Of a stretch of 64,000 nucleotides of DNA, positions 3,115 to 54,279 are shown piece by piece. Within the stretch, counting starts at the first letter, position 1. The number at the start of each line of letters is the position of its first letter. Origin of the DNA: Catajapyx aquilonaris (taxonomy: Eukaryota); contig KZ538381.1 in assembly GCA_000934665.2 (NCBI GenBank), positions 1 through 64,000 of the forward strand, given 5' to 3'. The translations under genes and the position numbers were made by a program. A model generated the notes under the pieces. That model was not told where the DNA came from. It saw nothing but the letters and a program-made list of their open reading frames with translations, and did no database searches.

Positions 3115-3444
3115 TTTTTTTTTTTGCATTACCCCATTGGGATTTACCATATCCTTTAGGGGGGTGGATTACCACCATCGGAAATTGGAGCCATATACGA
3201 AGATCTTATTTAATTACTCCAGGGTAGGTAGGAGGGGATGTGCAAAGTGCAAGTGCAATGTCTCTAATCGTCATTTTGTGAACTCCCCCGGGTGGCTTAG
3301 TCTATCGGAAATTGCCACCCGAAATGAAGCCAGAGATGGCCCAACTCTGCACGGATAAAGGTGGGAACCCCGGGTGGGGATCGAACCCGGGACCTTAATA
3401 TCCGTGGGCGCGAGCGTTACCGCTGCGCCACTTCACCTCCCTAA
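3115..3444 (-). mobile_element. tRNA-derived SINE, family A copy 1
   Basis: Minus-strand head with A box TGGCGCAGCGG and B box GGTTCGATCC, poly(A) tail (T-run from 3115), flanking direct repeat GGCTGCAAG at 3106-3114 and 3445-3453; aligns with copies at 4667 and 9418. Confidence 0.9.
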
Positions 3445-4666: not shown

Positions 4667-4995
4667 TTTTTTTTTTTTTACTGTACCCCATTATCGGGCC
4701 CTGGGCCCTTATTAGGGGAGTGGGATACCACCATTTGTTGGAACCATATACTGGATATGTTTAGTTGTTCCAAGGGTAAGTAGGAGGGGATGTGCAAAGT
4801 GCAAGTGCAATGTCGTATATTGGTCATTTTGTGAACTCCCCCGGGTGGATTAGTCTAGCGGAAATTTCCACCCGAGACGAAGCCAGAGATGGCCCAACTC
4901 TGCACGAGATGAAGGGGGGAACCCCGGGCTGGGATCGAACCCGGGACCTTAACATCCGTTGGCGCGTGCGTTACCGCAGCCCCACTCCGCCTCTC
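4667..4995 (-). mobile_element. tRNA-derived SINE, family A copy 2
   Basis: Aligns end to end with copy 1 (e.g. GGAGGGGATGTGCAAAGTGCAAGTGCAATGTC, GGGATCGAACCCGGGACCTTAA); poly(A) tail at the left end. Confidence 0.9.
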
Positions 4996-5048
4996 TGCAG
5001 TTTAATATTACTATACTGTATATGAAACTGTTTCCTAAGATGTAAATA

Positions 5049-9417: not shown

Positions 9418-9766
9418 ATAATAATAATAATAATAATCCGGGTAGTGCACGAACTCCTTACGAGTTATATGGCACGGACCTTTATTATTACTCATATAGA
9501 GTATACATAGGAGCTGATGACGTAGCGCCCGGGCCCACGGGCAGGATGACAGGAGGGGATGTGCAAGGTGCAGTGCAATGTCTTAATGTGGCCATTTTTA
9601 GTGAACTCCGCCGGGTGGTTTAGTCTGTTGGTAATACCACCTGAGACGACGCCAGAGACGACCTGAACTCTGCACGAGATGAAGGGGGTGTCCCCGGGCT
9701 GGGATCGAACCCGGGACCTTAACATCCGTGGGCGCATACGTTACCGCAGCACCACTCCGCCTCCCC
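9418..9766 (-). mobile_element. tRNA-derived SINE, family A copy 3 with a different (ATT)n-ending tail
   Basis: Head and core align with copies 1 and 2; perfect 16-bp TSD CCTTTTCACTTACCAT at 9402-9417 and 9767-9782. Confidence 0.92.
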
Positions 9767-16858: not shown

Positions 16859-17099
16859 ATGGGAAGCGGGGCGGAATCGGGCCGGAAGACTCCGACGGCG
16901 GCGCCAGCGTCGCCGGAAGTCCTCAGCTTCTCGGTGGCCCGGATCTTGTCACCGGAGTTTGGAAGAGACGCGCTTAGATCCAGGGAAAGGCCGGCGGGGA
17001 ATAGCCCGGAGCCAGAGGTCAGCGGGGTCAAAAACAAAGGACCCCTGGTGTGGCCGGCGTGGGTCTACTGCACCAGGTATTCGGACCGGCCTTCATCTG
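16859..17099 (+). CDS. en: Engrailed-family gene 1, coding exon 1 (EH1 Groucho-binding motif and EH2 Pbx/Exd-interaction motif)
   Basis: ATG at 16859 is the first Met after an in-frame TGA at 16814. Translation MGSGAESG...LSFSVARILSPEFG (EH1)...LVWPAWVYCTRYSDRPSSG (EH2). Ends at donor TCTG|GTGAGT (intron starts 17100, phase 1), the conserved engrailed intron position. en versus inv assignment is tentative. Confidence 0.95.
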
Positions 17100-22600: not shown

Positions 22601-23178
22601 GCAGCAGCACATTAATATGGAGGTTATGATAACCAGTCGTAATCTGAACGGAGTGTAAGATTATTATGCGTGTAACTCAGCTTAGAAGAAGATGTAACTT
22701 TCCTATAGGGACTTTGTACGAATAATTTAATTATATTATTTGCTATCCGAAACATTTCCTAATTGCCTTAGCCTAAGCCTTTTCCCCAATCATGAGCCGA
22801 CTCATTAAAACGTATACTGTGTTCGTACCTAATTCCTTATGTAAGCGCATTTTACGACCACTGCTGACATATGTATGGTAACGAGCTGACTTCCTCATTC
22901 CATTGCTAATCACCTCTGCATTATTAGTTGGAGACAAGTTGATTGCAAGTGATTACACTGCAATAGGCCGTAAATGACCTGCAGGATCAGCAGGCGAGGG
23001 CAATGAAAGTGGGTTGCCTATCAGGCAGGATAAGCATGCTGGGAGCAGACTCTTGAAAGTGTATACGGGTGAGTTGTCCCCCTGCAGACAGCGACTGCTG
23101 CAGTAAATTATCCGCATCCGCATTGATCCTCTTCCTTTTTCAACCCCATAAGACCCGGATGAGGAGAGACCAAAAATT

Positions 23179-23550
23179 GTCCCCGTAGCTCAGTGGCAGA
23201 GCGCTCATCACAGGCGTGATGTGGTCCCGGGTTCGATTCCTGGCGTGGGCATGTGTATTGGACTATCTCCAACAATCCTTATTTCCTAATCCTAAACCGG
23301 GTACAGGGTGAGTCTATTGACTCTAGAGGACATGTTGACTCCCCTTGTACAGCTCACGCAGTCGCTGCTACAGGAAAAGGGCATGTACGTGCACTAACTG
23401 CTGCTATCTTTCACTGGGTTGGAATGAAAGCAGTCACATTCGTTGGCTGAAATGTCGCTTCTAATTTTACACTCTACTTGTGAAGGCTCAGTTTGGAGGA
23501 GGACTACGGTTATTCGTTTGCACAACTGTTCCACTTTGCTAGATCTTTTT
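23179..23550 (+). mobile_element. tRNA-like cloverleaf plus about 300-nt body (SINE or Pol III ncRNA) in gene 1 intron
   Basis: 23179-23251 folds as a cloverleaf: acceptor stem 6/7 pairs, D stem GCTC/GAGC, T arm CCGGG-TTCGATT-CCTGG, non-canonical anticodon arm. T-run at 23546-23550. The 3' boundary is uncertain. Confidence 0.6.
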
Positions 23551-25399: not shown

Positions 25400-25743
25400 G
25401 CCCCCGCTCTCGTCGCGCCCCCAAGCGAGAGCCGCGTCGGCCGGAGGAGAAGCGTCCCCGGACAGCGTTCACTCAGGAGCAGCTCCAGCGGCTGAAGAGA
25501 GAGTTTGACGAGAACCGATACCTGACAGAGAAGAGGCGGCAGAGTCTGGCCAGGGAACTGGCACTCAACGAGAGCCAGATCAAGATCTGGTTCCAAAACA
25601 AGAGGGCCAAGATCAAGAAGTCATCCGGACAGAGGAACCCTCTCGCGTTACAACTCATGGCGCAGGGACTCTACAATCACTCCACCGTTGCCGTCGACGA
25701 GGATGATGAAGAAGAAGCAGAGGGGGATAATTCCTCCACGTAG
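25400..25743 (+). CDS. en: Engrailed-family gene 1, coding exon 2 (EH3, homeodomain, EH5, acidic tail)
   Basis: Acceptor ctcttttttatttgtgcag|GC joins exon 1 in phase (G|GC = Gly). Encodes PRSRR...[59 protein letters not shown]...[17 protein letters not shown], stop TAG 25741-25743. Spliced CDS 241+344 = 585 nt, 194 aa. Confidence 0.97.
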
Positions 25744-27109
25744 CCACCTCCTCATTCAGGTTAGAGACAGCATGTTTTTCTATGATATGTGTAACTAACT
25801 GGCAAAATTGAAGGTGAGACGACAGCAAGAGCGAGTGCCGGATGTTTACTGATACGGATGTGAGCAAACTTTTTGAAACACGCGGTACCTATTAAATAAT
25901 TCAGAAAAAAGAAATATACGATGAAGTATATTGTTCTGTTGTTCAATTTCTGTTAGCGTATACGGTGCTGCAAATTATACAGTATAACCAAATGATCTTG
26001 ACAATATGAAAATGTTAAAAGATAGGGGTTCTGACATCATCATCATCATCGTCGTCGTCGTCGTTGTTGTTGGCTCATCTACAAGTATAGCTCCTTGTAA
26101 TTCGTGTGTCATGACTAATTGGATCCATTGGCTTCTCTTGTCTTCTCTAAATCAGGGTCACAAAGAATGACCGATGGTCTGAAGGCCAAAGGTCAGAGTA
26201 GGGGCACCGGGGACAAGCTGGGATGAGGGGAAGGGGAGAAGGGTGACGCCATGGAATCTGCATATGATTTCAAGCAGGCCACTGCTGGAAGTAGGTAAGT
26301 TCACAATACATGCTGTTCCTTCATTCAATTATTGTTTTATTTCTTTTATCGAATATTATATTATCTGCAATATTTACACCACAATATGCAGTATGTAAAT
26401 TATAGTCTAAGCTGCTGATAGTGCACGGAATTTATATGCAAACTGTTGTTTTTACAGAATACTCGGCTTCGGTGCTTGCCTGCAGGCGCATCAACATTGT
26501 TGCCCTCTTCCCTTCCTCTAAATAACTGTACATTATTTTGTACATAAACTGTCAACCTCGCTTTGTACTGTATACCTGTATAGGATACAAACAATCCTTG
26601 TAAATTATGTGTTCAAATGAAAATACATGGATAATTTAATGAAACTTCAATTTTGCGTGATCACATTGTGATATTAAATGCATTTTATGACTCCAATTAT
26701 TATAGACCATGGCACGTCTTCAGAGTATGTGGAAGGAGTTTCCTTCATGTACTGTGCAGCTGTAGATATATGCCTGTTGTGAATGTACGCAAGATAATTA
26801 TTTGGTGTCACTGAAACAGTAAAAAGTACCTCTACTGCCTATCAAGGCGTCTATGCAAGCGACTTATTTTATTTTACACCTATTCATCCCTGGCAGCAGT
26901 ATACCTCGGAAGTTCAAAATAATATTTTATTTCCGTCATTCTAGGACAGTGTCAGTGTGTTTTTTTCCGGCCTCTTACGTTACTATGTATTACCCTATCC
27001 CTAATCACTAAAGGTCATGCAATAGTCGGTTTCATGATCGATAGTAAATTCAGAACAAGTGGCTTTTCTTCTGGATTAACAACATGTTCTGAATTTAATA
27101 AATTTTCTG

Positions 27110-27370
27110 TATATTTTCTTCGAACTCCGTGCAGGGAAGAAAGGACATGAGGTATAGGGATGGGGATTTTTGCTGGGGAGGAAACATTGGTGCTGGTGCA
27201 ATGTCTGAAACTGGGTCATGTGCAGTCTCCCTGGAGGTTAGGTTGCTAGACGCCTCCAAGGCGCGGGTCAGAGACCCTCCTGACGCAGGCGAAAGGGAGC
27301 TCCCGTGCGGGGATCGAACCCGGGACTTTCCGCTCAGCAAGCCAAGTCGTTACCAACTCGGCCACCATCG
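27110..27370 (-). mobile_element. tRNA-derived SINE, family B copy 2
   Basis: Reverse complement aligns with 12306-12568 (CCTTGGAGGCGTCT, CCTAACCTCCAGGGAGACTGCACATGACCCAGT, CATGTCCTTTCTTCCCT). Confidence 0.88.
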
Positions 27371-27719
27371 TAAAGGGTGCAATATTGTCACTGACATGTC
27401 TTCTCAGCGGCGAATTCAATAAAAGATCAATTATGCACATCTCTGGTAAGTGTTAGTCAGAGAGAGGGGGGGGGGGACGCAAGATAATAAAGTATTGAAT
27501 ATTACTTATTTCCCATGGCATAGGCGAATCTAATGGTTTCCGATTTTACGCAGCCGATTTTCAGATTGAAAACATGCCCAATGGAGGCTACATCGTGGAG
27601 GATAATGTTTCCCCGGAATACAAGGTAAGGGACGAAATAAACTTTTGTTCATCAGCCGTTGATCAGGATTAAAAATACTATCGGTGGCCCATACTATATA
27701 TCAATACCCCTGCAGTATA

Positions 27720-27810
27720 CAGGGTGTTCCAGATTCGTGGGTCACTTTTTGATAACTGCTATCGGCGATATCAGTTATGAAAAAGTGACCCACGAATCTG
27801 GAACACCCTG
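27720..27810. mobile_element. 91-bp near-perfect palindromic MITE, short form of the 10341 family
   Basis: CAGGGTGTTCCAGATTCGTGGGTCACTTTTT ... AAAAAGTGACCCACGAATCTGGAACACCCTG; TA on the left, CA on the right. Confidence 0.9.
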
Positions 27811-30800
27811 CATATGCCAAAATATGTTCCATAATTATTAAGCTTACATCTCTATCGGTAGAACTGTCACGTACGCCCACAAGTTCTGTTGGCACCCTGA
27901 AGGGGAGGAAAGGAAAAGGGGGGGAAATGAGATTGGAAAGATAGTCTATACTATAGAACTAGAAAGATGAAGTTTGCAGAGGGGCTGCGCACTCGGCTGC
28001 GCACTCAGGAATACCAACTTGACGCAAAGAATCCGGAACATTTCAACAAATGCGGATGATAACTAAATTAACTTATACTGTCGGTATAACACACGATATA
28101 TGCCCACTTGACCATAAAGACTCATAATACTAATATACTATAACGCCAATCGTTACTAAAATATTGCATGCCGTGGCAAAATCTGTTTGCCTCCTTTGCA
28201 ATGCACAAAATTCCAAATAGGCTATATTACTACACAAACATAATTTAATACTATTAAAATTGGTGCCTTCAGGCAAATATTTACACAATTTCTCAGTGGG
28301 AAATATTCATAATGGAAGGCTTGGCAATACGCAATGTAATAAAGATTTTCAGAAACAACATTTTGAATTAACTTTGTGATGCACCAGAGAGTCGAAAGGA
28401 ATTATTTTTTACCTATTGCATCCGATTTTGGTTTCCACATATGAAGTGGTAGCATCACATGTATTATTTGCGATTCCCCCAGTAGTTTGATGAATTTCGA
28501 ATTTTAAACTTTTAGGTGAACCATCAACATGCAATATGAGGTTTTTAAAAATGTGATTTAATAGTATGTGTTTATTTTTATATATACAGGTAATATGCAT
28601 AAGAACCTGCTTGTTGCATAATTCATAAATCAAAATAGGAAGTTTGAGTTGTTTTTTTAATTTAGACATTTCCATCAGTACATCAGTATCCAAATATGGC
28701 TGTGCATAACAATAAAAAACCATGTGCTGCAATTAATATTGCCCGCCTTCTAATTCGTCACACATCCTAAGTCAAAATCTTACATGGATTGAAAGTTATA
28801 ATATCAATTAGGAATAAAAGCTAATAATCGTAAATAAGGTTGTACAAAATCGGCTGTATATATTGGGCGGAAGGGAGTCAGGTAAAGAATTATATAGAGT
28901 TGAGCCTCAAGCTGCACCTACCCTCCCTATCATATGACAGATGTGAGCCATAAAAATAATAATTATAATGACAATATATTGCGGGAATGCTGCTGAGGGG
29001 CATCCATATTATTTGTACGCATCAAGATACGAAAGCATATATATATATGGTTCAGAATTGAGTGGGTCGGCGGAAGAAGGGCGTCAAAATCATTATGAAA
29101 CACCCTGTATAGAGAGGGTATAATTACGCAAGGGAATTTCTACAGTCTCGTTTCTGGCCTCATGGTCGTTGAGACGAATACATTGCTAACAGGGTTGACA
29201 TGACGTTTATCATTGATCAGCAGTGACTGGGCAATTGGAAACGTGAGGTTGGGGACTAGCAAGCAGCACCCCCTCCCCTTTCATTAAAAATAAGATTGGC
29301 ATGGGTGGCACGTGAACAAGCAAAAGAGGGTAGCTTGATTTAGCCAAACGAAGACTCACTTGGAATTTTCCATCTAAGAGCCTCAACAATGAGCACTCTG
29401 TATGTGTTACATGCAGCATCCGACCACCCAGCACAGCCTGAGAATCTTTTTTAGGAAATATGCTGCATACAATTATGACTGAGGGTCTCGGGTCATCGGA
29501 GATTTTGAGATATTTGATTTTAAAAGACACGGTACTGATCCCTTTTCTATAACAGCAGGAATGAGGAAATATATTATATATAGGCATTTGGATGCTCCGG
29601 TGTACTGTACGTACACCTTGAGTGGTGCTCCGGTTTTACTATCAGCCTTTCAAAATTTACGCCGATTATAGGTCATGAGCTGGTTCAGCGAGAATATTTA
29701 GAAAACTATATGGGAACATAATAAGCCCTTTCAAAGTGATTGCAGGAAAGCTCATTATTGTGAAACACTCAATCAAAAAATCACATGTCACTCGGATGTC
29801 ATAAATGAATCATATGGATGTCACGTACCGTATACTTATTAAAATTGGTGTCTATATAATATGTGACTACCGCTCACAATCAGCTATTTTTTTGCAATGC
29901 TAAATTGGCACAGACATGACCTGACCATCATTACGATCCTGCCAACAAAATGAAACTGACATGGGGTGATGCCAGTTGTTATGTATAGGTCTAATTACAT
30001 ACTAATTTTGCTAAATAATAAAACCTAATCCTTTGAAAAATATAGCACATTATGCACATCCGGGTGTACACTGCTGTCAAAGTTGTCGGTTCAAGAGGGG
30101 GGTGTATTATATTGTATATTATTATATTGTATATAAAGTGAGTCTCTGAAGGTATAGCGTATATAAGACGCAAGCCTATAAACAAAGTGGATCAGTGTTC
30201 AACATGCAGCGAAATTCATGCCATTCTTTTAATCTGAAGTTCACGCAAATAATCAGCCAAACTCTATACAGCATGCGTGATGTATAAAATTGCACTGAAT
30301 CACACATACATTTTAATTTCTGGTGACATGGACCTTATGTTTACTTTGAAAATAAAATTATTTTGTCAAAAGGCCGTACATGAGATTTACACAGACACAT
30401 TACTTATATTTTTATAGGCGAATCTACTGCCCTGTTGTCATTATGTGAAACAGAGCATATTGAGGTTTAATACTTTTACAACAGTCATAATATAACTTAT
30501 TAATCTTTGTGGCAAAAAAAAAATCGGCGTTGTTATTCCATGCTGTTGTTTTTAAAACTAATGGAGTTATTTTCCACCTGCTTTATGAAGATGCATTATA
30601 AATACAGGGTTCGTTCCTTTATTTTACATGATGAGGATACATTTTAATATAGGTCAAAGGATCCAAAGGAAGTCCGGTTTCATCCATCCAGAAATCAAGG
30701 TTGAAATGCTGTAAGATTGTGAGGACATGTAGCATGTATTAATTGCGACAACCAACAAGATGCAGGTGACATTGACATTTTGACTCACCTTCGAGCACTG

Positions 30801-33800
30801 TATTTCAATTGCAGTAGACGTTTTAGTGAGCACTATTTTGGACATAAGTGGCTTATTTTAAGCAGTTATTTTTCTGGCTCTCAAAAAATATTAGCAGTTA
30901 TAGTAATGGATTCTCTTTAGGTCCTGCTGTAATGCAACTTTACTCGTGTTACGACATTGTGAATGCTAATAGGGATTCCCTAGAACCCCCTATATCCGAG
31001 GTCAAATGTTTCAAAAGAGTAACACATAAGAGGCCAAAATAAGGTGGCAATAGAAACACTATATTGCTCTGTGGCTCTGCAAATGACACCGTTACTTGTA
31101 TATTGTAGGACCCTGAATCCAGTGACAGCAGCCAATAGACGTAATAAGTAACCCCTATTCAGCACCTGTACCAAATAACCCTGCTTATTGTCGAGTCCTG
31201 TATAGGCAGGGTTAGGTGTTGTTAAGAACTGGAGTCAGGTAGGCGCTGTTGGTCGGGGCACTATGAGTGCCCTGATGGACTCATTATAGGGTGTCAAAGA
31301 GCCGAAGCCATATAGCAATTAAGGCAGTGAAGGTATATCGGTCGGTGAGAGTCCCACGGGAGAGTGGATGAGCCGGATTCCCACCGTGGCCACCAAAGTG
31401 AGGGTCCCGCCAAGGAGGGGCAACTCGACGGCCGCTGTCTTTTGACCACGGATCCAGCTTGTTGGCAAGCGGTGTCATAGCAAAGGCGCCAAATGTCCAA
31501 ACAGCCTCCCGCGCTGTTGCCAAAACACGTCACTCACCTGATTTACTACCCGCCGAGGTGGGAGGAGATGAACCGGGGTCTTCCTCGTCTTCTAACTTGT
31601 AAATCCCCCCCAACCTGTATAGAATCCGGGGGACCCCTTATGGTCTACGGATAGATCCCTCTTATCCTTCGAACCTTTGCCACCGCCACCACCACTGTTG
31701 CAATTCTTCACGCTGCCTGTCTGCAGACACCAACAGGGACAAGTCCGCATAGAAAAAGGTGTTTTGGTGACCACCCGCATGCATTGACCCCACCTCTTCA
31801 TTTTTCCCGGGCCTTTTGAGTGGAAAAGACCGATGACTTTTCCGCTCACTTATTGTGTCCTTTGTGGTCGGGACGGTTGAAACATTTCGCTCAAATTGAG
31901 GGGAATCCTATTCCTTACGGACATGGCTGCGTGGAGGTCATTTATCCTGGAGGAAGTCAAGCGGCATGCCAAAGGGATTCTATGGCTATAGGGAGAGGAT
32001 CCATCCCGACCTAGCAGGTGACACAAGGGCTTGGACTACGTGCTAGTGGATGGCTTTGTGCCGACACATTTGCCTCACCACTCAGTGAGTCCCGTTGGGA
32101 AGAGTCTGGAATAGATGGGGTTTGTCCAATATGGGAGTGTCGCCTATATTTCGTGATTTATATATTTTTAAAAAATTTGCGTTAATATTGCTAAAAGAAA
32201 CCAGCTGGTGGGTGCAGCGATATGGGCCTGAAAGGGTTAGCCCATATCAATGACGATTCTTTCAACACTTAATTTTATAATAATAAATTAAGGCCAATTT
32301 TAGCACCTTGATGTTCTGTTAGATCGTTCAATTTTTATTTTATTTTTATTTGGAAAATCACAGTCATTGGTCAGTTTTTTGTGTAATATCTTCCAAGTTC
32401 GTGAAAGCACAATTGGAGCTGTCTGACGCCTGAATGACACTTGGAATCATTTCGTTGCCCTATACCCCTCTATAATCTGTCATTAGCACCAATAATGGAA
32501 GCCATAAATTGAAAAGCCAGAAAGTCATTGTAATCTGGCCGTAAACCCAAGCGGAAACTAATTTATTACAGCAGGCAGCAGGAATGAAAGATAAGAATTG
32601 AAATTGTCTCAATCAAGCCCCAGATTTTTGGGTACGTTGGCACACATGAAGCGTGATGATAATTAAGGGGTTGAGAGGTGGAGAGGAATGGTTTGGGAAT
32701 GTGGTCCCTCTTACCCTTTTTTTTTTTTTTAAAAAAAAAAGGTCCCCTCTGTTTCGCTATCTTGACGAAGCAGAAGGCAATGAAGCTCGTTTCAGACCAT
32801 TAGCTCCAGGAGGTCACCCGGAAACGATTGTTGTCACCCTGAATCCCCCCTCCAGTTCTTCTCGTTAGAAGGCCGGTCTGCTCGTCACTCTTCTGCCTCT
32901 TGTATGCGGCGGCTCGGTTTGGGGGGAAACAAGGCTGGATGCCTTGCCTGGACGGCCACCCCTACAAGTTTGGGCCTCAACAAAGCGGCCGCCCTTTCAA
33001 CCTGGGGTCCCCCCTACGACAAAACACTGAGTGACAAGCACGGTGGCCATGTCCCATTATTTATCGGCCGATAAGCCGCTTGACACTTTATCACCTAGTG
33101 GCTCGTTCGTTGGTCCGCATTCGTTAGCTGGGTGGGATGGATGGGCAGGTAGGTTAGGTAGAGGTAGGAGAAACACAGAGGGGTTTGCTTTCTCATGTTG
33201 CCGATGGTTCCAATTAGAAGTTAATGCCCTTGTTTCCGGCCAATTGGGCCGGCTGCGCTTAGTTTGCGCCTCATTTTGATCGGTCAACTTCCTGTAAACA
33301 TTGCGACTTATCAGAGGGACAATAGGGGCCAGATGTTGCTGGAGGTGTTTTAGAGAGGAACATGGGTTACAGGTAACGGAAGGGATTATTTCAGTTGAGT
33401 TGACGGTCATTTATGTGCTGCATTATCGCCCCGACAACCGAGAGCTGGTTAGTTTGGGAATAATTAATTATTCATATCACATTGTAGGCTAATGACATCT
33501 ATCAATCATCAATGCCGGCTTGTAGCTACAATTAACAATTCCAATTCAGTTTTGTAAAAATGGCGAAAATTAACTGTGAAGTTAAAGTATGGGATAATAC
33601 AGTTATTGCACCTTGCTACAGAAACGCAGTCCTATTTTGGCACATGTTTATTACAAGTTGAAGACCATGAATGAGGAATATTATATCTATATCCACCATT
33701 AAGAGTCAATAGTAGCACTCTAACTAATTATCATGGTGTTGATCTGTGCACTAGATGGCTCAAACTACCGAGTAGCGTGGCCTTGATATTCTTACTTGAG

Positions 33801-35781
33801 ATTTTCAGTGTGAGAGTAAGTATAAACGTGTTACACCAGTATAGGGTAGTGAATGTGAAAACAACATATCCCCGTTAATCCTGGTGTAAAGTGGGAAGTA
33901 AAAACAAAGTAGCCCTAAGTCTCGTCCTCGAAATTGATGCACGAGCAACGAAAACACCAAAACGAAATTACGACGTACGTAATTATTGCAATACAGCAAA
34001 AATTTTGGCCCAAAAACCAATCAACGCATAACGGAGACTTGCATGTGAAGAAGATGCTCTTCGTGTCTCTCCTGCAGGTCTGACTTTGATGTTTGCCGGT
34101 GAGCTCTGAATTTTTTCGGTCCACCGGGAGTGCTTAGTGACAGCGACACTCCCACGAGTATCCTCCTGGGGACATCCCAAGCAGGGATTAAAATATTTCG
34201 GGGTCCCACAAATCCCTGAAAGTAAATGAGCGATCCACACCCCTGTCCCGTTAGGTGTCTGCAAAATTGACATCACACTCAATATAAGCTCTGACACATG
34301 GCCAGCGGTTCTCAACCTTTTCCGTGTAGCATGTATAGGCCTCCAACTTCCTAATTGCGGGATAAGTGTAGGCCTACTTGTTGAGTTAGTTACAGCTTAC
34401 CCTTCGTGTACGTGTGGACTGGGAGTGAAATCGACTTAATGAGCCCAGTTTGTGTCCAGGAATAAACCCTGCAGCGTGGTATGCTCTCCGCACATTCCAA
34501 GGTACTCTATAGAATCCAAATCTTGATCAACCCACGACACACCCAAATCACACTTGCTCATACGTGACTCAAGCCCAATGTCCGCTTCAGTTTTCACCCT
34601 TTTTGTCCAAATTACTATTTAGGAACGAAAGACATGAAATCAGTAGGGCCATTGCGTGCAGTCGCCTTTTTTTAAAAACAAAAATACGAGCACGTTTAGT
34701 AACCACATTTATTTACCAGTGGCTCATCCTAGTGTGCGTATCTACCTACCTATCTGTGTATATTGACTTAGTGTGAAAATTGGCTTGGCCCGTCTGATTC
34801 CTTCCAAGGGAGGGACCCCGCCCTGGTGTCCCCGGATGTTTCGGCAAGATATTTCGATTTATGGGGTTCGGCAGCCGTTCCGGGAAAGCCCGATAAGGCC
34901 CCAGTGCTGCAGGGAGGGTGGGGTGGCTGGATGGGAGTTGAGGGGGGGAGGCTAGTAGCATGCTGGGGTAGGCGCACTTTATCGGATGAGCCACGTGGTA
35001 GTGGGAGTGAGTGAGTGGATGGGGTAGAATGGGGGGCTATAATGGCCGCCCGGCACGGACAAGCTGGGGGGGCCAAAGGGGGGGTGCGGTGGGGGGCAGG
35101 CCCCGCCCTTTTCGTCTGCGTCACGCCGGAGGTTCCGCCTGGTGGAGGGAACCTATTATCATTCTGCTGCACCCCACCCACCCACCCACTCTGCCTGGCA
35201 CTCTATCGCAGACACCGACAATGTGAAAATTCACACGTGGGAATTACAGCTGGGGTGAGAGAATTGATTCAAACACTCGGATATTTGCAGCAGGTCCATT
35301 GCATTTATGACCCTCACTATTGCATTGGAGGAGGTCTGATCTGATTCTGTCAGGGCGTGTGAACGGATACAATTCATTGAACTGTGTTTTGTTCAGGTCA
35401 GGCCCGCAGCAGGTTGCTTGTAGGTGTCACCTCCAAGGAAGCACAGTCACACAAAGAGTGTTCATTCAAATGCTTATATTAGTCTCATTTGTAAGTTATT
35501 TTAAATATTTTTATCCAAAAATGAAATATTAAAGCATTTCTACTGGGGATTGTAATTACTCTATTAGAAAACTGACTCGAGCACCAAAAAGTAGAGCCGA
35601 TGTTCCATGGGCTACAGTAAGACTACACACTTCCTATAAGTAACTCAATATCGACCAAAATGCGACTACTCCTTCTGCATTTCAAGTCTTCATCAGATAG
35701 AACGTTAGAAAGACCTCGAAAATTACAATAATTGGAAACATTCCCTATCTCCCAACTTCATCAGTACATGTAGTACGTATA

Positions 35782-36192
35782 CTATATGGGGCTCAAATTG
35801 TTTTGGCCACTTTATCCTGGTCTGGAAGCAACCCTTCGCACAGGCACCACGTTGAGCAGGTGTGCGGGTGTGTGGGTATTCAGGTCTCGCATAGGGTCTG
35901 GGGACCAAGGTTGGTGTTTTGACTGTAGCTCTGGGGACATGCTCTATATTGTGGGGACATTTCGCGTCCCCACAGCAAAAACGCCTGGTGGGATACCGCT
36001 TCAGTGGGGACATGTCCCCACAATTCCGTTATGTAGGGTTTTACAAAAGTCAAATTTTCTCAGTCTAGGATAGGTAGGGTAGGGTATACGTTAGGGTAGG
36101 TTAGGTATGGTTAGGTTAGGTTAGATCAGTTGTTTATACACTCGCTTCGAAAATGTGTTTTTCTTGTCCCCAGCACAGCCTATTGGATCCCT

Positions 36193-36231
<39 letters not shown>

Positions 36232-36285
36232 GGGTTGCTTCAAGACCAGGATAAAGTGGCCAAAACAATATTTGAACCCGATTAG
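35782..36285. mobile_element. MITE with about 60-bp TIRs carrying an inserted element
   Basis: TTGTTTTGGCCACTTTATCCTGGTCTGGAAGCAACCCTTC at the left pairs with GAAGGGTTGCTTCAAGACCAGGATAAAGTGGCCAAAACAA at the right. Confidence 0.85.
35876..36195. mobile_element. Nested GT-flanked element with GGGGAC/GTCCCC motifs and a degenerate (TTAGG)n block
   Basis: Subterminal inverted repeat TCAGG..ATAGG..CTGGGGAC / GTCCCCAG..CCTAT..CCTGA; TTAGG/TAGGG repeats at about 36066-36124; followed by (GT)n at 36196-36229. Confidence 0.55.
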
Positions 36286-36435
36286 TACACAGTATGGATG
36301 TTATTCGTGAAAAGAAAGGGTCATACTGAATTGAAAAGTGAAAATGAGCACATATCCAATTATTATAACATTATTTTAAAAAGGGGTTTAATATATGTGG
36401 TTGAATATGCTCCGTCCAAAAGTGCTGACGAATTA

Positions 36436-36552
36436 GGACCAGTTGTATGAAAACAAATTACGGAAGACCTCCGATTATAGGTATTTTCAATACATAATCA
36501 TGCAGTCATAATCGGAGATTTCCTACTTAATTTGGGTTTATGCACCTGGTCC
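36436..36552. mobile_element. PIF/Harbinger-like hairpin MITE
   Basis: TTA|GGACCAGTTGTAT...CTCCGATTAT pairs with ATAATCGGAG...ATGCACCTGGTCC|TTA; TTA target duplication on both sides. Confidence 0.8.
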
Positions 36553-36897
36553 TTATAGTCACGCCGAAAAGCAATGATTAACCTATTTTTTATGATCGAC
36601 AACTACGCAACCACGGTTGCACAGCTTCCAGGATACCACAGCCAGGTTAGTCTGCATCTTATAAAAGCTTACAGGCTGCTGGTGCATTGTCCAAATGCCC
36701 CCATCAGTTCAAGAAGGGAAAAATAGTTACCATATCATGCATCACTGTAAAGAGAAACAATCCGTTTTATTGGAAGCAACCAATATGGTCCTGGTTGCTG
36801 GACGCAGCTGGGCAATTCATGGGTGTACAAGTATGTGCATATAGGTGTGTAAATTATGTATAACTCTGCATGCATACAATAAAATGTAAACATAGGC

Positions 36898-37003
<106 letters not shown>

Positions 37004-40000
37004 TAGGCTATATAATACACAGGTATAACGCAAGTTGCTTTGTATGTTAGATTGAGATGATAAAGGAGTATTTTTTTAAAATTCTTTCCACGTTTTTTGT
37101 TGTACTGTCTATAACAGTTTCGAAACAACAGCGGTACGGTATGTTACATAATTTAGGCTACGCATTTTTGAACAAGTTATTTATCATCTTCAAAAAATAT
37201 TTATGCGAGTTAGTCTTTAGCAGAACTGCCGGAAAACCAGTAGACAAGTATTGACTATATTTTGACTATACTACACTGTATTATATACTTTTGAACCCTG
37301 ATGCCTATGATATTGGAATAATTTAGCGGAACCTTAAAACATATAATGAGGTATGCATCTGTACGGGATAAACTTATACAGCATTATAGCGTAGTTTACA
37401 TGTAAACTACACTATAATGTATAAGTTTAGCGCTGTTCATAAAGAATTTACTGATTGATTTATTTATCACTATTGCTGACGTCATATTCTGTTGCGATAG
37501 TTTTCTTCGAGATCCACAGCCCTGCACATTGTTTGTCGCGTCTTCTACTTGTATAATCCTGGAACCCATACTTGTGTTGAAGTTTCTATACATAGTGCAC
37601 TTAAATAATATCCTTAAGTATACAAGTACGGTACACTGTAAGTTATACTTGTATACGTATTTGAGGAAGCTCTCGCGGGTAGAGGAATGGTATATAGCCT
37701 TCTACATATTGCATGAGAGGGATGAAACAAAAGAGGTCCATAACAATTAACTTTCAGAATAAAATAAATTCGACACTGTTGGCTCCCGGATGTAAAGATT
37801 CGATCCAGTCACAAACGACATCACCATCAAGGAAGAATGTCCTTATATGCTTAATCTCAGCTGCTCATTATTTTATGCGTAAAATGAGGTAACATATTTT
37901 AAGTGTTGTTTGTGATGCACTTTTTTCCTAGAATTATCCTGCACACTTTTTGGAACAACTGTAAGGGAATGGTCTTATAATACATCAGGAGTCATAACAA
38001 CATACAATACTGCTGTATATACTCTTTACCGTATGGTTGAAGTTACAAGATGCCTTGGCTGAATAGTCAGCTGGTGTGTAATGTCAGTATAGGTTACTAC
38101 AATCATAATGGTTCAGTTATTATTCGCCTTTTCTGCGTGCATCTGACCATATACTCCAGAAATTCGGACTGGTGGTTATATGGTGAGGTGTACCGCAAGG
38201 TATATTGCTTGATGATCTTTCGTCATCGCGGACTACCCTCTTATATATAGGAAAACGTCGTGATGCATTAAATTAATTAATTATTATTAAGACTTTTATA
38301 TGTGATGGGGTGGCACCTGCTGATGCTGATGAACTCTTACTAACCAGAAAAGCCAACGTAAGCCTATGCAGTATATACAGCACAATATTATGAACATGAT
38401 TTGAAGGGCAGTAAAAAGGTAAGTGCTGTATTGATGGTTTCACAAATGCAACGCTGAATGCAAAAGATTGCCGTGGAAATGTAGCCTATCTGCAATCTGC
38501 ACAATGAAAACCGGAGCCAGGCAGGCATCCAACCACACAAAATGCGCAAAGTGCGCCAATTATAAAGCGGGCAAGCAGCATCATTAGTGTCGGAATAGTG
38601 AGCCAATCCCTCCGTACAAATGGATCATCACAATGTAAAACCGGCATTGGGCGATAACGTGGGAACACTAGTGGCCAACTGATAACCTATCTGAATTAGC
38701 GCATAATTAATTGCTCCCATGACAATCAGGCCGGCCAGCCATCCTCGGATATAATGCCAACCATGCACCAATAGTTCTCATGTGTGTGTATGTGTGTGGA
38801 TCCAGCGTGGGTGTGATGGGGTGGGTGGATGGGCCGTTGAGTCCGGCGGCCACATGCGAGTACACGGAATAATAACCCTATAAACAGCGGTGGTCGTTTT
38901 TGCTGGATGGCGATATGGCAGCGCATATGTATGAACACTGCAAATAGGGCCTAATGCAATTGTTTCCCATTGGCCAGCTCGACCTCGCATGATTCACCCC
39001 GAATTACCCTCCCATAACCATAACGCAATGGAAACGTTCCACCCTGGCTCTTTTTTGTGCCCCTGCTGTGGTGTGTTTCTCTTCTTCTTTTTATTTCTTG
39101 CTGCCACCACCAGCAGGCCACCCATAGCCAGCACCCGTGATCAGCAGCCATGCAGCAGGCAGGCATCAGCCAACCCCCCTACATCAGCGATTATCCGGCG
39201 CTTAATAACCGGGTTAATTAGCCTAATTCGTTTTCCATTTTAAATCCGGGCTCGTGAGCCAGTAGAAGGGGATTGATAGCGTTTCCGATCATTATGGACG
39301 ATTATCCTCCCATCTGAGACAGATATTATTCTGGGGCAAATTGCGCTTTCCCACCTTATTAACTCTTCATCAGTTGGTGTATATATGGATGGGGGCCTTG
39401 CCAGCTCATTTGCACTGATTGGGGGGGAAGGAAGGAGGGACTCGCCCTCTACATCATGTATAGTCATTTCCTGACTATATATCCCATGCACCACCGAAAT
39501 GATCAACTCTCATTGCCCTTTTCATCGGGGTGCACCCTACCGACAGGCGAATGTTACTATGGTATCAATTAATTACAGCGTTGCATGATATGTGAGTAGG
39601 CCCCAAGAAGAGCCCATTCGTTGTTAGTGACAGCAGGCATGCCTTCATCCCCCCCACGCAAGACAAGACCAGATTCGTTTCCGGGAACAGGGCTGTAATT
39701 ATGCCCTCATCAGTTTCTTGCTCGCCTGCTTGATCATCACTTGAGCCTGGATGATCATCATCCGCGCCCTTCTCATTTCATCTTGCCTTTCAACCAATAA
39801 GTTACCAGACCAGAGGGTATAGTTTAACAAACGCGAGCATGGCTAACATGCTGCCTATATTGCGTAATGTGATAATGAGGCTTGTCGTCAGACTCTTGAT
39901 TGCACAATTTTCAATACAAAATGATTCCACTTGAATGTATGAAGAATATTAATTACTCGTTGTAACTTTAAAAAGGTGTCAGGTTTATCATAATGTACTC

Positions 40001-40638
40001 TGTCGTCCGGTGTCATAATATAGTTTGACGAATGCGTCTTATAACAAGGTTACAACACAACTTACAATCAAGGATAAGTTTGATTAAAACGCGATTCACA
40101 TTTAGGCTTACACTGTATCTAGTTAATGCAGGGAAATGCTTTTTGACATTGACGTCTTGCAATAACTTTTCTTAACTGAGATACGCATAATTTCGGAAGA
40201 CAGCGTCAAATGAATAATGCTGACGCTTGTCAGAAGCAAGGCCACGAATACGAAATGATCCGGGAAATGCTCGCCAACAAACTAGACTGCTGGGCTCTTT
40301 TTGTTAAAATATGTGCACCTATATTACCAACTTTTTATACACGTAACACTTGGCATGATGGTATAGACTGGTCACGAAAGGCCTATTGTCAACGAATTTC
40401 AGACGGGAGTGCGATAACAAATCCAACAATGACAAGGACTCACATTCACGTGTTTTTACAGGAGGTATGTAAACATGCAGCAAGAACTAGGTTTATTGCT
40501 GTTTGGAGTAGGAAATATTTGTATGCGAGTGTGGCCACAAAAACTTCCCTGAGGATTATGTATAGAATGATTAGAATGATAGATTATGTATAGAAGGTAG
40601 TTGATGGGCCTTATAAGTTAGATGCATGCGGAAACCTT

Positions 40639-40810
40639 TTGGAAATCAAGCTTGGAAGATATTGTGCAACATTTCATATTCTTGCACTTAAAGTGTTCCT
40701 GTCGAGGTTGCGGTGTTGCGAAGGAGACACTGCATGGGTGACAAAAATTGGCATACCTTATCTTATACCACAACGATTCAGCAAGGACAAGTTGGAACAC
40801 GCTCATCATA
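40639..40810 (+). pseudogene. Possible decayed P-element/THAP9-like transposase fragment
   Basis: YLIPQRFSKDKLEH (40759-40800) resembles the Y-x-x-x-x-R-x-S/N-Q-D-x-L-E motif around the catalytic Glu of P-superfamily transposases; no other domain recognised. Confidence 0.3.
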
Positions 40811-41439
40811 GTCTACAATCATACAGTCTATATCACTCACGAGAGGCATAACAGCAGTATACAGAGGGAGATTTTTTTTCTCTCTCTTGCAATGTTCTGA
40901 TTTCAGTTATATAGTGAAATTAATGAATCTGTTTTTGCTTAAATTGTGAGATGATTACCATTTAAAACATTTCCGACATGCGCTAAAAATAACATATTGA
41001 CGGAACAAACTGGTAAGTTATAACATAGCGATATTCCGAATTTTTATACATTATTGTGTATAATGTACTGTATTATACAACTTCAAATGGTTTTCATATT
41101 ATGAATAAAGAGTTATATGCATTATATGATAGACCCCAAGTACGTAATTTGAATTCACATAATATTTTTTTCAAAACACTGAATCGTTGCAGCTGATGAC
41201 TGTATAATAAACACACAGCTCCGAGACCACCCGCCATGTACTGTACAGTACCTTTCCAGTTTCAAGTTGTCATGGGCTTTTCATTGATACTATTTCAGTG
41301 ATAACTTATTATAGAGGGCTGTAAAATTTAAATGACCATTTCCATAATTTATATTCTTGTGCATCTTTTACGCAGTAATAATATTCCACATGTTTGCTGA
41401 ATCCTATCTCTTTTGTTCTCTACTCTGAAAAAAACAAAG

Positions 41440-41770
41440 CCAAACAAAATGGCTGCCCAATGCAACCGAATTTCCAGGTGCTCCCAAAATCCGTGTTCAC
41501 CGCACACATGTGATGAAAACCGGAAAAAAAGGTCGAATGAGTATTCTGGTGGCGAGGTAAACATAGTTGAGCGTGTGGGTAATTAGCAGAATGCGCCCCA
41601 ACGCCTTAATACACTGCACATATAATTTGGAATGGCATAATAGTTGAATTACATGGAATTTCCTTGGCGGGCCAGCGAAACACGGAACGAGCACACGACC
41701 GGCTCTGGTTGGCTCCTTTTCAAATGGTCCGCTTTGATGGACGCCCGCCTCAACTTGGGTGGTCCACAGT
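41440..41770. promoter_or_regulatory. Candidate intergenic enhancer (TCF, Gli/Ci and YY1/Pho-like motifs)
   Basis: CTTTGAT at 41732-41738, TGGGTGGTC at 41756-41764, AAAATGGCTGC near 41446. Confidence 0.35.
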
Positions 41771-43504
41771 CACGAGTCCGATCCATGGATCGAGTATGCC
41801 TACCCACCTACCTACCTACACGTTTGCTTGCCTGACTGCCACGCCAACAATATTCATTCAACCTGGTATATAGCTTAAGGGTCTTGCTGGCTTACATGCC
41901 GACCATAGACTATCTTTAGAACTCGTCTTTACAAAAAAAAACATGGTTTTTTTGCTGGTTGGGGAGAGAAGTCGCGATGGGTTGTTGCGTGGTGACATCT
42001 CTTAGGGATTAATTATGTTTTCCATCGCCTGACAGCGCATATTGCTTCATTGGGAGTTTCTACACCCTGCTTCTTATAAGGATGCGTGATTGGTTCACCT
42101 AGGTGATAGGCTATAATTAAGGGACTATTAATGTTTGCTGGCAGGTTGTGTTCCAACTTTTTTTTTATTTCCTCTTTCCGTCCCTCCCTGCTAATGGGTT
42201 CAAACTTGTTATGCTGACGAATATATGTTGGCGTCACTGCTAATTGAAAATTGGATTATTTTTTTCTTGAATAGGAATGTACTTGGCAGATAGTCATCGG
42301 TTTCCTCTGGGCCCATAGGGGTGGCATTTTATTACCAAAGAGCAATAGGACTTGGCACGAATTATTAATCACGGTTTCAAATCCATTTATTTTCATATAT
42401 GAGGGTTCATTACTTTCTTTGCAGATCGCACTATTACATGTGATAAAATGTTATAGATGCTAAAAAATATGGTCATGAAACACAATGTGTTTCACGACCA
42501 TACTTTTCTGTGGAGGCAATATCATTGCATCTCCTTTCTGGTCACACAAAAGTGTAGGTATACTGTAGGAATCACTGTCATGTAGGGTATCATTTATACA
42601 TAACTGGTAGTTTTGTTGTTGTAAACAAATCCGGATTTTATAGCAAATAAAAAATAATCCGAACATTACAAACACCAGCAGCAGCACGAGTATATATGAT
42701 ACAAAGGCATACTCCCATTATATCTATATTTACAACTCTGACGCAATGTGCTCAAAATGTGTCAGTATTTTATAGCTTAACACTTTCAGGGTAAAGCTGT
42801 AGTTAGTTGCGTACAGTGATAAGTTATTTCAGTCCCATCATAAGCATCAACGTTACGTAAACTTATAAATTGTGGTATAAAAAGTTCCTAAATAGACATG
42901 GACTCTCGCTCTTGTGTCAGGCATGCAATATGTTACTGTAGAGCATGATGTCACCCAAGTCGTAAGCTGTAAGTTAATTATGTAAACCGACCGTGAACGG
43001 AATAATATCGTACTGTACATATATGGTCCTAAACGATATATCAGTTTTACCACACTTCATGATGTGGAATGAGAAAATTTTTATTTGTCCTAACTTTAAC
43101 ACATGCATACCCATCATCAAACATACGCTCGTATAGTATATAGCACAGATTAGTCTTCTGGACTGGATTTTGTTTATTGGTATCGAAGTGAGTGAAATGT
43201 CAATTCTTGTGGGAGGAATAATCGAAAGTTGGGAGGAATGGTTCGACATCAGCATGACGTACCTGTACTTGGGGGAAGGGGGGGGGGGTGATTCGGCACA
43301 TCGTGACTGCACATAACATGGGGAAGGGTATATAGCGCGTGTAATTAAGCATATTTGAAACCTTGTTGAAATCTCATGTGGCCTCTATAGGACTATATAG
43401 GGGACCACCTCTTAAATGCTAACTTTATTCAATAATATTGCTGCCCTGTTGATGATATACAGGCAGCCTCCGACTTACGTAAGTCCGGAAAAGCACGGGG
43501 AAGA

Positions 43505-43685
43505 TGCGGTTTTGGATAAGCGGAGGAAATTGGAGAACCCCGAGAAAACCCATCACGTGAACATGGAGATAATATCTTGAAAGTATTTCCACCAGAGAAA
43601 ATCATCTGTTCAATCCGAGTATCGAACTCGGGACCTCAGAGGTGAAAAGGCTGCAACGTTATCCACTATATGCACCAGTTCCGCC
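43505..43685 (-). mobile_element. tRNA-headed SINE with V-domain-like core
   Basis: Minus strand has B box GAGTTCGATAC followed by GGGTTTTCTCGGGGTTCTCCAATTTCCTCC; a head fragment of similar sequence lies near 60195-60240. Confidence 0.6.
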
Positions 43686-46534
43686 ACCCTAAACTCGCAT
43701 AATGATTTAACTTATGTAATTTCCTTTTGGTTGATAAAAATAACAGGAAACTCGATGCGTGAAGGGCTGATCCTTTGACGCTGTTGGCTGAATACATGCT
43801 GTATCGCATATGTATCACACTCTGCCATCATAGGTTTTATCTCTTTATAAAGCTATTCATCTATATGCTGCTTACCCAAATGTCTACACCACCAGCACAA
43901 CTCATGTTATGAAAGCTATGCCTCCGCACATCACGCTTTATTCTATCTGATGCCTCCATGTATGAATATATGAATACTTTTACATGATAAAAAATTGATT
44001 ACGTCAACAACTATATGCGTGAATGTAACTGTCGCGTGTTTATACTGCACACAAAAAAACACGGTATGACCCACATCAAATGGGACATCGGGAATAAGAG
44101 AAGAAAGAAGAAAAAGAAACGGGTGCTTTGCTTACCTCTCCTGTCCCGCGATGACACCGTATGTGCTTTTCTGTCAGCCAAGCAGTGCATGCGTCTTCAC
44201 TGTGTATAACAAGGCTATAAGGAGATAATTATATGTCACAGAGAAGCCCTTTCTCTGCCCGCTAAACACGGTTTGCACACTGGAGAAAAGCATCATGCAT
44301 CACGCACTGTCATTATTAGTCTCTTTCACCACTGAATCTGAATTTATGTTCCACTCTCCCATGCGCTTCTCGCACGTCAAGCAAGCAAGTCATGTATTTG
44401 CGGTTTCTTGGGATGGACTGGAGCGAGACAGCAGTACATATACCTATATTATACGCACTAGACCCATCAAAGCACCAAGCAGCTCACGCAATGAGAACAC
44501 CTTACCAATATGTGAATAAAGGTGAGTGAACGCTGGCTGTTGAGTCTAAGATGCATGACGCTGTATAGTGTGAATGAGAGAATAGAGCTAGAAAAGAAAA
44601 GGAGGGAACGAGGGTGTATCATCAGCAAGCGGTGAAGCCTAATCCATCGGAACCCTGCCGCTGTCTGTAAATGTCAAAATAGGAAGGTGGTGCAATAAGG
44701 CGGCTTTAACGCCTCTGTTTACGTTTTCGAGGGCAGCAAATTTGTCCCCGACACACGATCCATCATCTCTTTTGTCAGGGGAGGCAATGTGTCGCTTCTC
44801 TCTTCCAAAAGGTGTCAATCAAATCTCACACAACTTTTAAATGCTCCTCAAAGGTATCGATGGCCCCTTTTCCCCTTTGGCCTGTCCTTCACCGCTATAT
44901 CTATAGCCTGAGGGTATACCATATACACACTTGGTATACACACCACTAGAAAGATTATATAGACTTCATTTTGAAATCCTCTTACAAAGCTCAGGCGCAG
45001 TTCTTCTTTTATATTTTGTTATTTATGACTTCCAAGAACCCTTTTCAGTGTCCTGGGAAGGAATTTTGCTGTTTTCATAAATACTACATAGAAACTGTGC
45101 CAATGCAGGCAACGCAAACAACCGCATCTCAATAACATGAAAGCAGAATATTTAGTACTGTTTGAGTTTAGGTACCATGTTTTGCAATCACAAAAAGGAT
45201 GTCAACACATAAGCCATAATTTATTTACCACATCAGCTTACACGCAGCAATAATAATCAATAATAATTACAATCAATAATAATATCAACCCGGCGAGGCC
45301 TACAAGGAAGGAGAAAATGTTTTATTTCGAAGTAAAGATTTTGAGGTTTGCATCCTGAATGAACTAAGTGCAACTTATATTTGCTATATGTTGTTCGCCA
45401 ATTATATACTATAATATATTGTTATTTCTCAGAAAAATTGTAATTAGGTAGAGCCTATTATTTGTTTTAATACTTTACACCCGATGACTTAGGAATAAAA
45501 GTTTTTTCACTCACGACATTTGGACATTTGTAACACCTTATGATTTACAGGTTTGCAAATACTATTAATATTTTTTCTAATACGCGGGTTTACAACACTA
45601 CATAAGTACGGAATGTTGCAAACCATCGGCAGCTGCACGGTCACCGGAAAAACGTATAGGCATGAGGATTCTGATGATATGATTGTATCCTCTTGACAGA
45701 GGATGCCGGAATTATGATAACGTCCGCCTCTGCGAACATGAAACATCCAAAATATGATCGCCGCGTGGGAAGAGAATTTTTGACAACGTCTCATTCACGT
45801 TGGGCAAAGAAAGAAAAAAAATGAGGGTATACCGGTATAAGGAAACAGTTCTCGGAAGCCAATCTGGGGGAAAAATTACTATTCCAAATGCAATGGCTGT
45901 CAAGACAGACGTCCTGTTTAGAACTTCGCATCCTCTCCTACTTTTTGATAGGCCTACTATTTTATATGCTTTCTTCAAATTAGGGTATGGGTGACATGTA
46001 CCATCGTGCCCTTTTAACGTATCATATTAAACATTGAGGTGTGCAAAAAATGTCATTATTTTCTGTCATTTACACTTTTTTAGTCGCCACTTGCTTCATG
46101 TTTACAACAGAGGATATGGAGATCAGTCTCTAAGTTTGCATGTTACGACCTCGTTTCCGGATTCAGGAGATGTGAACGCCGTCACAGGGAAATCAAAGGA
46201 ACTTGGGATGGGGGAAGAGTGTACAAGAAGTCAACACGCTGGGCATATACAGTCTGTTTGGGAGCCACTTACTAAGCAGCCAAGTTGCCACCGTTCGTAG
46301 GAGGTAAATATGGCACCATCAGAGGGGAATGAGGGTAGTCGGCGCCAAAGGGAGCCATGCACATGACCCAACCGCCATTGACAGCGTCCTTCTCGCCCAA
46401 GACGTCGGGTGCGCCCACCAAATCACTGTTATGTATAAATGTGGCTCCACGGCGCCAACCTCCCCAACAACAACAAAAAGGCAATAAAATAATAAAATAA
46501 TAATAATTAACTGGAATGACTCAGATACACTTCT

Positions 46535-46914
46535 TCAAGCCTCCTTGGCCTCGTCTATAGGCTCCAGACAAGGTGTGGATGCGGCGGTGGGCACTCCGCC
46601 TTCCTCATCCTCATCGCCCCGAACAGGAATGGTGGAGTGATTGTAGAGTCCCTGCGCCATGAGTTGTAACGCGAGAGGATTCCTCTGTCCAGAAGCCTTC
46701 TTGATCTTGGCCCTCTTGTTTTGGAACCAGATCTTGATCTGGCTCTCGTTGAGTGCCAGTTCCCTGGCCAGACTCTGCCGCCTCTTCTCTGTCAGGTATC
46801 GGTTCTCGTCAAACTCTCTCTTCAGCCGCTGGAGCTGCTCCTGAGTGAACGCTGTCCGGGGACGCTTCTCCTCCGGCCGACGCTCTCGCTTGCGGGCGCG
46901 ACGGGAACGGGGGC
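46535..46914 (-). CDS. en: Engrailed-family gene 2 (possibly invected-like), terminal homeobox exon; upstream exon(s) not found in window
   Basis: Minus-strand acceptor tgccgttcccccgtag|GC CCC CGT TCC at 46914, same phase-1 position as gene 1. Encodes [22 protein letters not shown]...[45 protein letters not shown]...EA*. No WPAWVYCTRY-coding sequence seen at 46915-64000. Confidence 0.96.
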
Positions 46915-54129: not shown

Positions 54130-54279
54130 GCTCCATCATTATGCCTGGAATGATAACCCATGTAAGTTGTAGGGATGTTTCTGTTTGCACAGGTGGGCAA
54201 CTGGAGGGACCATGCTCCCGCGGGGAATCGAACCCAAGATCTCATTAAATGGTGATTGCTCTGCCACTGAGCTACAACC
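54130..54279 (-). mobile_element. tRNA-derived SINE remnant
   Basis: Minus strand GTAGCTCAGTGGCAGAGC...GGGTTCGATTCCCC (A and B boxes); left boundary approximate. Confidence 0.65.

Follow-up and report, generated by a model that had tools for sequence, protein, structure and literature searches.

Engrailed (en) and invected (inv) are paralogous homeobox genes whose duplication dates back several hundred million years, and Peel, Telford and Akam reportedly described concerted evolution of the hexapod en/inv homeobox in 2006. According to the passages on this locus in the Oncopeltus genome paper (PMC6444547, citing Peel 2006), the two genes originated ahead of the hexapod radiation and are oriented in a way that lets gene conversion continue; the same passages describe the tail-to-tail layout and treat an RS motif, encoded by a small internal exon, as diagnostic of invected. 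Two further systems come close. In the portion of PMC3199776 on Capitella teleta Dlxa/Dlxb, the conversion tract is centred on the homeobox and measures 150 bp by GENECONV. The portion of PMC3924837 on human red/green opsins takes a divergence peak inside converted sequence as a sign of selection.

The first 64,000 nucleotides (nt) of contig KZ538381.1 of Catajapyx aquilonaris (forward strand; assembly GCA_000934665.2), called the window below, carry the hexapod engrailed/invected cassette of this japygid dipluran. Its two genes, assigned by their motifs to engrailed (gene A) and invected (gene B), share a perfectly identical 187-nt tract over the homeobox. We conclude that an old en/inv duplication has undergone recurrent ectopic conversion of the homeobox between inverted linked paralogues (probability about 0.88). 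The duplication is older than the Diplura-insect split. A model working from the letters of the window (the sequence-only reading) had already proposed an old duplication with recent conversion, which is borne out by an excess of silent identity, diverged first exons, tree discordance and common rare residues. It had also mentioned that concerted evolution of hexapod en/inv was a published proposal, and PMC6444547 does cite Peel 2006 for it in the passages on this locus.

Results

The gene A copy of the tract lies at 25434..25620 (+) and the gene B copy, its reverse complement, at 46697..46883 (-). Agreement is 187/187 nt, and 249/253 nt when the match is extended to 25686/46631, as first reported. 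The tract consists of 1 nt and 62 codons ending at K58, spans RRPE of EH3 and homeodomain residues 1-58, and is identical at all synonymous sites, which confirms the earlier count of about 62 codons. It is the longest exact repeat of the 76,651-nt contig; the next non-simple repeat measures 54 nt and lies in a dispersed repeat. A genome-wide DNA search gave four matches, namely the two copies and two unrelated homeoboxes (77-80% over 61-70 nt). The unrelated exons, on contigs C7342 and C1122, match weakly at helix 3, and we take them to be rough-like and NK1-like.

The EH3 start (25400..25433, +) is about 90% identical to gene B, with a 3-nt indel at the 5′ edge of the tract, two silent changes and one replacement; the silent changes and the indel had been noted before. 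Both genes read PRSRRA here, which occurs in 1/187 other records with that motif. This identity and the rare common residues suggest that the EH3 start is probably an older conversion tract. On the 3′ side, all four A/B differences (25621, 25623, 25626 and 25638) fall within an 18-nt divergent island (25621..25638, +), with S59 (TCA) in A against A59 (GCT) in B; codons S60 and N64 differ silently. Beyond it, EH5 is covered by another identical run, 48 nt long (25639..25686, +). The sequence-only reading had held that the acceptor regions, C-terminal tails and 3′ untranslated regions (UTRs) immediately outside do not align. Introns and UTRs indeed show no alignment, save a tRNA-like dispersed repeat, but the acidic tails align weakly to about position 25711.

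Silent sites were compared at codons where A and B encode the same degenerate amino acid (114 codons, 15 silent differences in all). Differing codons number 3/8 in EH1, 8/16 in EH2, 2/9 in EH3, 0/61 in the tract, 2/5 in the island and 0/15 in EH5. The contrast between the tract (0/61) and the equally constrained codons of EH1-EH3 (13/33) gives a Fisher p of 1.9e-7, and a run of at least 61 codons arose in 20/300,000 permutations that scattered the 15 silent differences over the 114 codons. With three hidden single-nucleotide polymorphisms (SNPs) assumed in the tract, p is still 4.8e-5. The tract has about 40 synonymous sites, and its synonymous divergence (dS) is below 0.074 at 95%. At typical insect rates, the homeobox would have been converted a few to perhaps 15 million years ago.

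Silent identity could also be held without exchange, by purifying selection on the DNA or RNA (exonic enhancer, splicing, structure or codon bias). Ultraconserved developmental coding exons exist, such as Ubx microexon I in the portion of PMC4989106 that treats it, and GC content at third codon positions (GC3) reaches 80% over the tract. Its codon use is mixed, with five Arg codons represented; given local codon use, the probability of identity by chance is about 1e-22. Other homeoboxes of the genome match only at 33/37 and 42/52 nt, and such constraint cannot yield the same rare replacements (S33 and A39) in both copies. We regard this explanation as extremely improbable.

The rare residues were counted in 239 other engrailed homeodomains among the matches listed. 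S33 occurs in 0/239, A39 in 1, Q14 in 6, Q10 in 9 and D21 in 16, while both A and B carry all five; no homeodomain in this set has more than two of them. The nearest differs at 6/58 residues. None of the 240 matches listed is a named dipluran engrailed.

Protein trees of the homeodomain and of the remainder disagree as conversion predicts. The non-homeodomain tree used 48 columns and 19 proteins, with Schistocerca, Artemia, Daphnia and decapods left out; the Eriocheir pair (homeodomain insertion) and the Tetranychus pair were left out of all trees. Outside the homeodomain, A falls within the en clade (85/86) and B beside Pedetontus inv (86/73), and A and B as sisters are rejected (approximately unbiased test, p-AU 0.024), a test that is independent of en/inv labels. 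In the homeodomain plus EH5 tree, an en clade including A is rejected (p-AU 1.8e-7). A 36-row homeodomain tree groups the paralogues by species in the japygid, Pedetontus, Orchesella, Cryptotermes and Timema. Six Hymenoptera group by paralogue, two decapods do so in part, and the Neocloeon paralogues do not group at all. Homogenisation is therefore lineage-dependent. The six hymenopteran pairs have a fixed A/G difference at homeodomain residue 10, unlike basal hexapods, and conversion may have stopped or been blocked in that order.

A further rival to recurrent conversion is a recent duplication that copied either the gene or just its homeobox exon, for example exon replacement by one unequal crossover or retro-copy. 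A single transfer also gives a perfect tract and common derived residues, and events are not countable from one genome. A recent whole-gene copy, named by the sequence-only reading as what would overturn it, is ruled out at exon 1, where genes A and B align at only 52/65 nt, at EH2; the introns, UTRs and tails, like exon 1, either show no relationship or have reached saturation. The rejection of A and B as sisters outside the homeodomain likewise argues against a recent whole-gene copy. The nested identity pattern (EH3 about 90%, tract 100%, island, EH5 100%) requires more than one event, and Pedetontus and Orchesella paralogues likewise group by species in the homeodomain tree. One recent event is thus highly improbable. 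Together, the silent identity excess, the diverged first exons and the tree discordance point to an old duplication with recent conversion.

The assembly was checked against four of five listed sequencing runs, those that contain the stretch, all from one sample and two of them possibly the source of the assembly. No RNA run with the stretch was among those listed, which has no bearing on expression. In 4/4 k-mer re-assemblies, a single common contig of 253 nt, spanning 25434-25686, connects to the unique flanks of both genes. Two unique contigs enter at 25434-25463, one of them with the gene B upstream letters as a loose end, and two leave at 25657-25686. No other letter occurs within 25434-25620 in any of the four.

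Several results weigh against recurrent conversion. The island (25621-25638) appears in the re-assemblies only in its B form, so the re-assembler merges paralogue bubbles. Depth of the common contig is 1.23, 1.19, 1.44 and 1.74 times that of the flanks, against 1.78 expected; predicted ratios for 1, 2, 3 and 4 hidden SNPs are 1.65, 1.51, 1.37 and 1.23. Up to about three hidden differences in the tract (four at the lowest ratios) may be compatible with this depth. Support in the non-homeodomain tree is moderate, with branches below the starred level, and some en/inv labels derive from the same motifs as the tree columns. GC3 is 49/61 (80%) in the tract and 194/272 (71%) in both exons 1 (p 0.20), so there is no clear GC bias and no significant signal of GC-biased conversion; GC enrichment at silent sites is common in conversion tracts without being required. 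The tract has 57% GC and its flanks 40-43%, which may explain the lowered depth.

These read data bear directly on collapse, in which the homeoboxes differ at several silent sites and assembly or polishing gave one consensus. The assembly is fragmented (20,583 contigs), common-contig depth is below the full-identity value in 4/4 runs and clearly so in three, and merging of the 25621-25638 bubble shows that paralogue variants can be hidden. Nevertheless, the genome assembly retained four differences just past the tract, and an independent assembler produced unique flanks that terminate, at either edge, in identical 30-mers. Two sequences as divergent as EH2 (8/16 degenerate codons) would have almost no 31-mers in common and would form no such junction. 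In its weak form, with a few hidden SNPs, collapse leaves the conclusion unchanged; in full it is very unlikely. The sequence-only reading had named collapse as a way to be wrong, and the joined structure weakens that objection while the depth leaves room for a few SNPs. The near-identity of the tract is supported by graph structure; perfect identity is not independently proven.

The four differences are clustered within 18 nt (post hoc p 0.0009 by nucleotide and 0.008 by codon), and the only replacement among them is at residue 59. One en/inv pair from each of 10 hexapod lineages was surveyed at 66 positions. Residue 59 differs in 5/10 pairs, more often than any other position and always in one direction, en having S or T where inv has A. 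The combination is S/A in Diplura, Collembola, Archaeognatha and aphids and T/A in Ephemeroptera. Among neopteran-type records typed by tail, which are not independent, 43/43 inv have A59 and 18/84 en lack it. Residue 59 might be an ancient en (S/T) versus inv (A) difference protected by selection from conversion since the base of the hexapods, a proposal that we consider doubtful. In the remaining 5/10 pairs both genes carry A, the Penaeus monodon pair shows the opposite arrangement, and Drosophila inv presumably carries S. Two separate tracts ending at the island by chance, or relaxed constraint in en behind it, explain the pattern as well. A protected residue would split the converted region into tracts of 187 nt and 48 nt. 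If the proposal holds, residue 59 would mark a functional difference between two proteins to which one and the same DNA-binding domain is usually attributed, for example through phosphorylation of En alone where helix 3 ends. The island is a candidate for maintaining the distinction between En and Inv.

Gene anatomy agrees with an engrailed-class pair. Gene A coding exon 1 (16859..17099, +) has a predicted start ATG, EH1 LSFSVARIL and EH2 WPAWVYCTRYSDRPSS, and a phase-1 donor GTGAGT at 17100. After an 8.3-kb intron, exon 2 (25400..25743, +) encodes EH3, the homeodomain, EH5, the en-type tail VAVDEDD and the stop, with a PF10525 match; the predicted protein is 194 aa. The last exon of gene B (46914..46535, -) encodes EH3, the homeodomain, EH5, an inv-type tail and the stop. 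Its exon 1 was not found in the window or in the rest of the 76,651-nt contig. The genome yielded at least two EH2 exons and at least two EH5 motifs, and the second EH2 exon lies outside the window on contig C968 (6992-6392, -), 6.4 kb from the start of that contig. With no other EH2 exon and no third EH5 motif found, the C968 exon is assigned to gene B as its probable exon 1. An overlap between C968 and the contig of gene B was looked for and none was found. The predicted gene B protein is 328 aa, microexon included. EH1, EH2, EH3, the homeodomain and EH5 occur in this order in both genes, PF10525 scores above cut-off at both loci, and the best protein matches are engrailed proteins. The two closely linked paralogues are tail-to-tail on opposite strands, as expected of the hexapod en/inv cassette; their stops are 20.8 kb and their homeobox exons about 21 kb apart.

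Gene B is predicted to contain a 6-nt microexon, GAAGAA (54837-54832, -), preceded by TAG and followed by a GTAAGT donor; 18/20 nt before the acceptor are pyrimidines. With it, gene B reads PSSGRSPRSRR, the invected RS motif. It is the single match to an AG-flanked 6-nt exon encoding G-R-S in 36 kb of gene B intron. No matching exon occurs in the 8.3-kb intron of gene A, on the opposite strand, or in 200 Markov simulations (0/200). These signals suggest that the microexon is used in gene B splicing. EH1 LKFSIENIL and the tail of gene B resemble Pedetontus inv, and LSFSVARIL, KGPLV before EH2 and VAVDEDD of gene A resemble Pedetontus en.

An RS motif after EH2 is also present in engrailed proteins of Chamberlinius (millipede) and Artemia (branchiopod). 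The motif may be ancestral and older than the en/inv duplication. RS alone is therefore no proof of orthology, and the en-type features of gene A weigh more. Decapods have two engrailed types, with EH1 and tails like hexapod inv (LKFSIDNIL, IPIREE) and en (VPVDED), and judged by these types a duplication of the en/inv kind may be older than hexapods.

Other elements were recorded. tRNA-like elements lie in the introns of both genes (23178-23252, + and 54211-54275, -), and ARAGORN reports the first as tRNA-Leu(CAG). The 69-nt intronic match between 23185-23253 and 54275-54211 was considered as a common enhancer or older tract and rejected, since at least 25 matches in the genome (75-86%) mark it as a tRNA-like repeat and suggest a tRNA-derived short interspersed element or pseudogene family. 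Dispersed repeats of 82-88% identity include 35777-36291 with 75832-76446 of contig C684, 12311-12564 with 27114-27367, and 3156-3442 with 4712-4996 and 9551-9765. The repeat at 35777-36291 has terminal inverted repeats and resembles a miniature inverted-repeat transposable element. The cox2 gene of the mitochondrial contig has its best match in Japyx solifugus (92% identity), followed by Occasjapyx (85%) and Parajapyx (79%), and other named matches reach at most 76%; provided that this contig is the host's own, it places the host among the japygid diplurans. Contig C5905 (1-3017) carries a frameshifted cox1/nad2 copy beside the intact mitochondrial contig; it is probably either mitochondrial DNA inserted into the nuclear genome or a contig rich in errors.

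Discussion

The repair pathway is presumably ectopic gene conversion by pairing of the copies. From EH3 to EH5, about 300 nt make up the only long stretch of homology that remains between the genes, and protein constraint would keep pairing possible. A break in one homeobox could use the inverted copy as repair template, by fold-back or by sister or homologue pairing, with no crossover. A crossover would invert the interval between the genes and is presumably rare or removed. Tract limits would then be homology limits, set 5′ by the indel and 3′ by the divergent tail. Conversion that recurs could leave nested tracts, older in EH3 and recent over the homeobox and EH5, with the 18-nt island between. 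Under homeobox conversion the DNA-binding domain remains common to both proteins, which still differ in their N-termini, RS microexon and tails.

The consequences are practical as well as evolutionary. The sequence-only reading had warned that homeobox probes, RNA interference (RNAi) and short reads cannot tell the genes apart. Probes, double-stranded RNA and single short reads do hit both, but read pairs that reach the unique flanks separate them. Exon 1 or the 3′ UTR must accordingly be used for probes and double-stranded RNA, and Tribolium RNAi work already avoids the homeobox, according to the relevant part of PMC10455198. The locus supports the view that a single duplication preceded the hexapod radiation and that duplications are overcounted in homeobox trees. 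As an example of conversion still active between very old paralogues on about 300 nt of common sequence, it is unusually clean.

Conversion in Diplura adds a new lineage to a phenomenon known for en/inv in insects, and the tail-to-tail cassette, RS microexon and homeobox conversion are extended outside insects. No paper on dipluran en/inv turned up in the literature searched, most subscription papers being beyond reach. The relevant parts of PMC4989106 and PMC9632033 contribute nothing about this tract. In the sections of PMC6444547 and PMC3199776 that deal with it, the hexapod en/inv cassette has, as here, two tail-to-tail paralogues with the small RS exon in invected only, and homeodomains that group by species with flanks that group by paralogue; here the host is a dipluran and identity is perfect over 187 nt. 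Capitella Dlxa/Dlxb, as presented in the portion of PMC3199776 on this pair, are likewise linked tail-to-tail homeobox paralogues with a divergent remainder. They belong to another gene family and phylum, and the Dlx tract includes intron sequence, whereas the present one lies entirely within exons. In the part of PMC3924837 on human red/green opsins, exon 5 likewise shows a small cluster of differences at a replacement site between homogenised flanks; the peak here is 18 nt with one replacement, S59/A59, for which selection is only a hypothesis.

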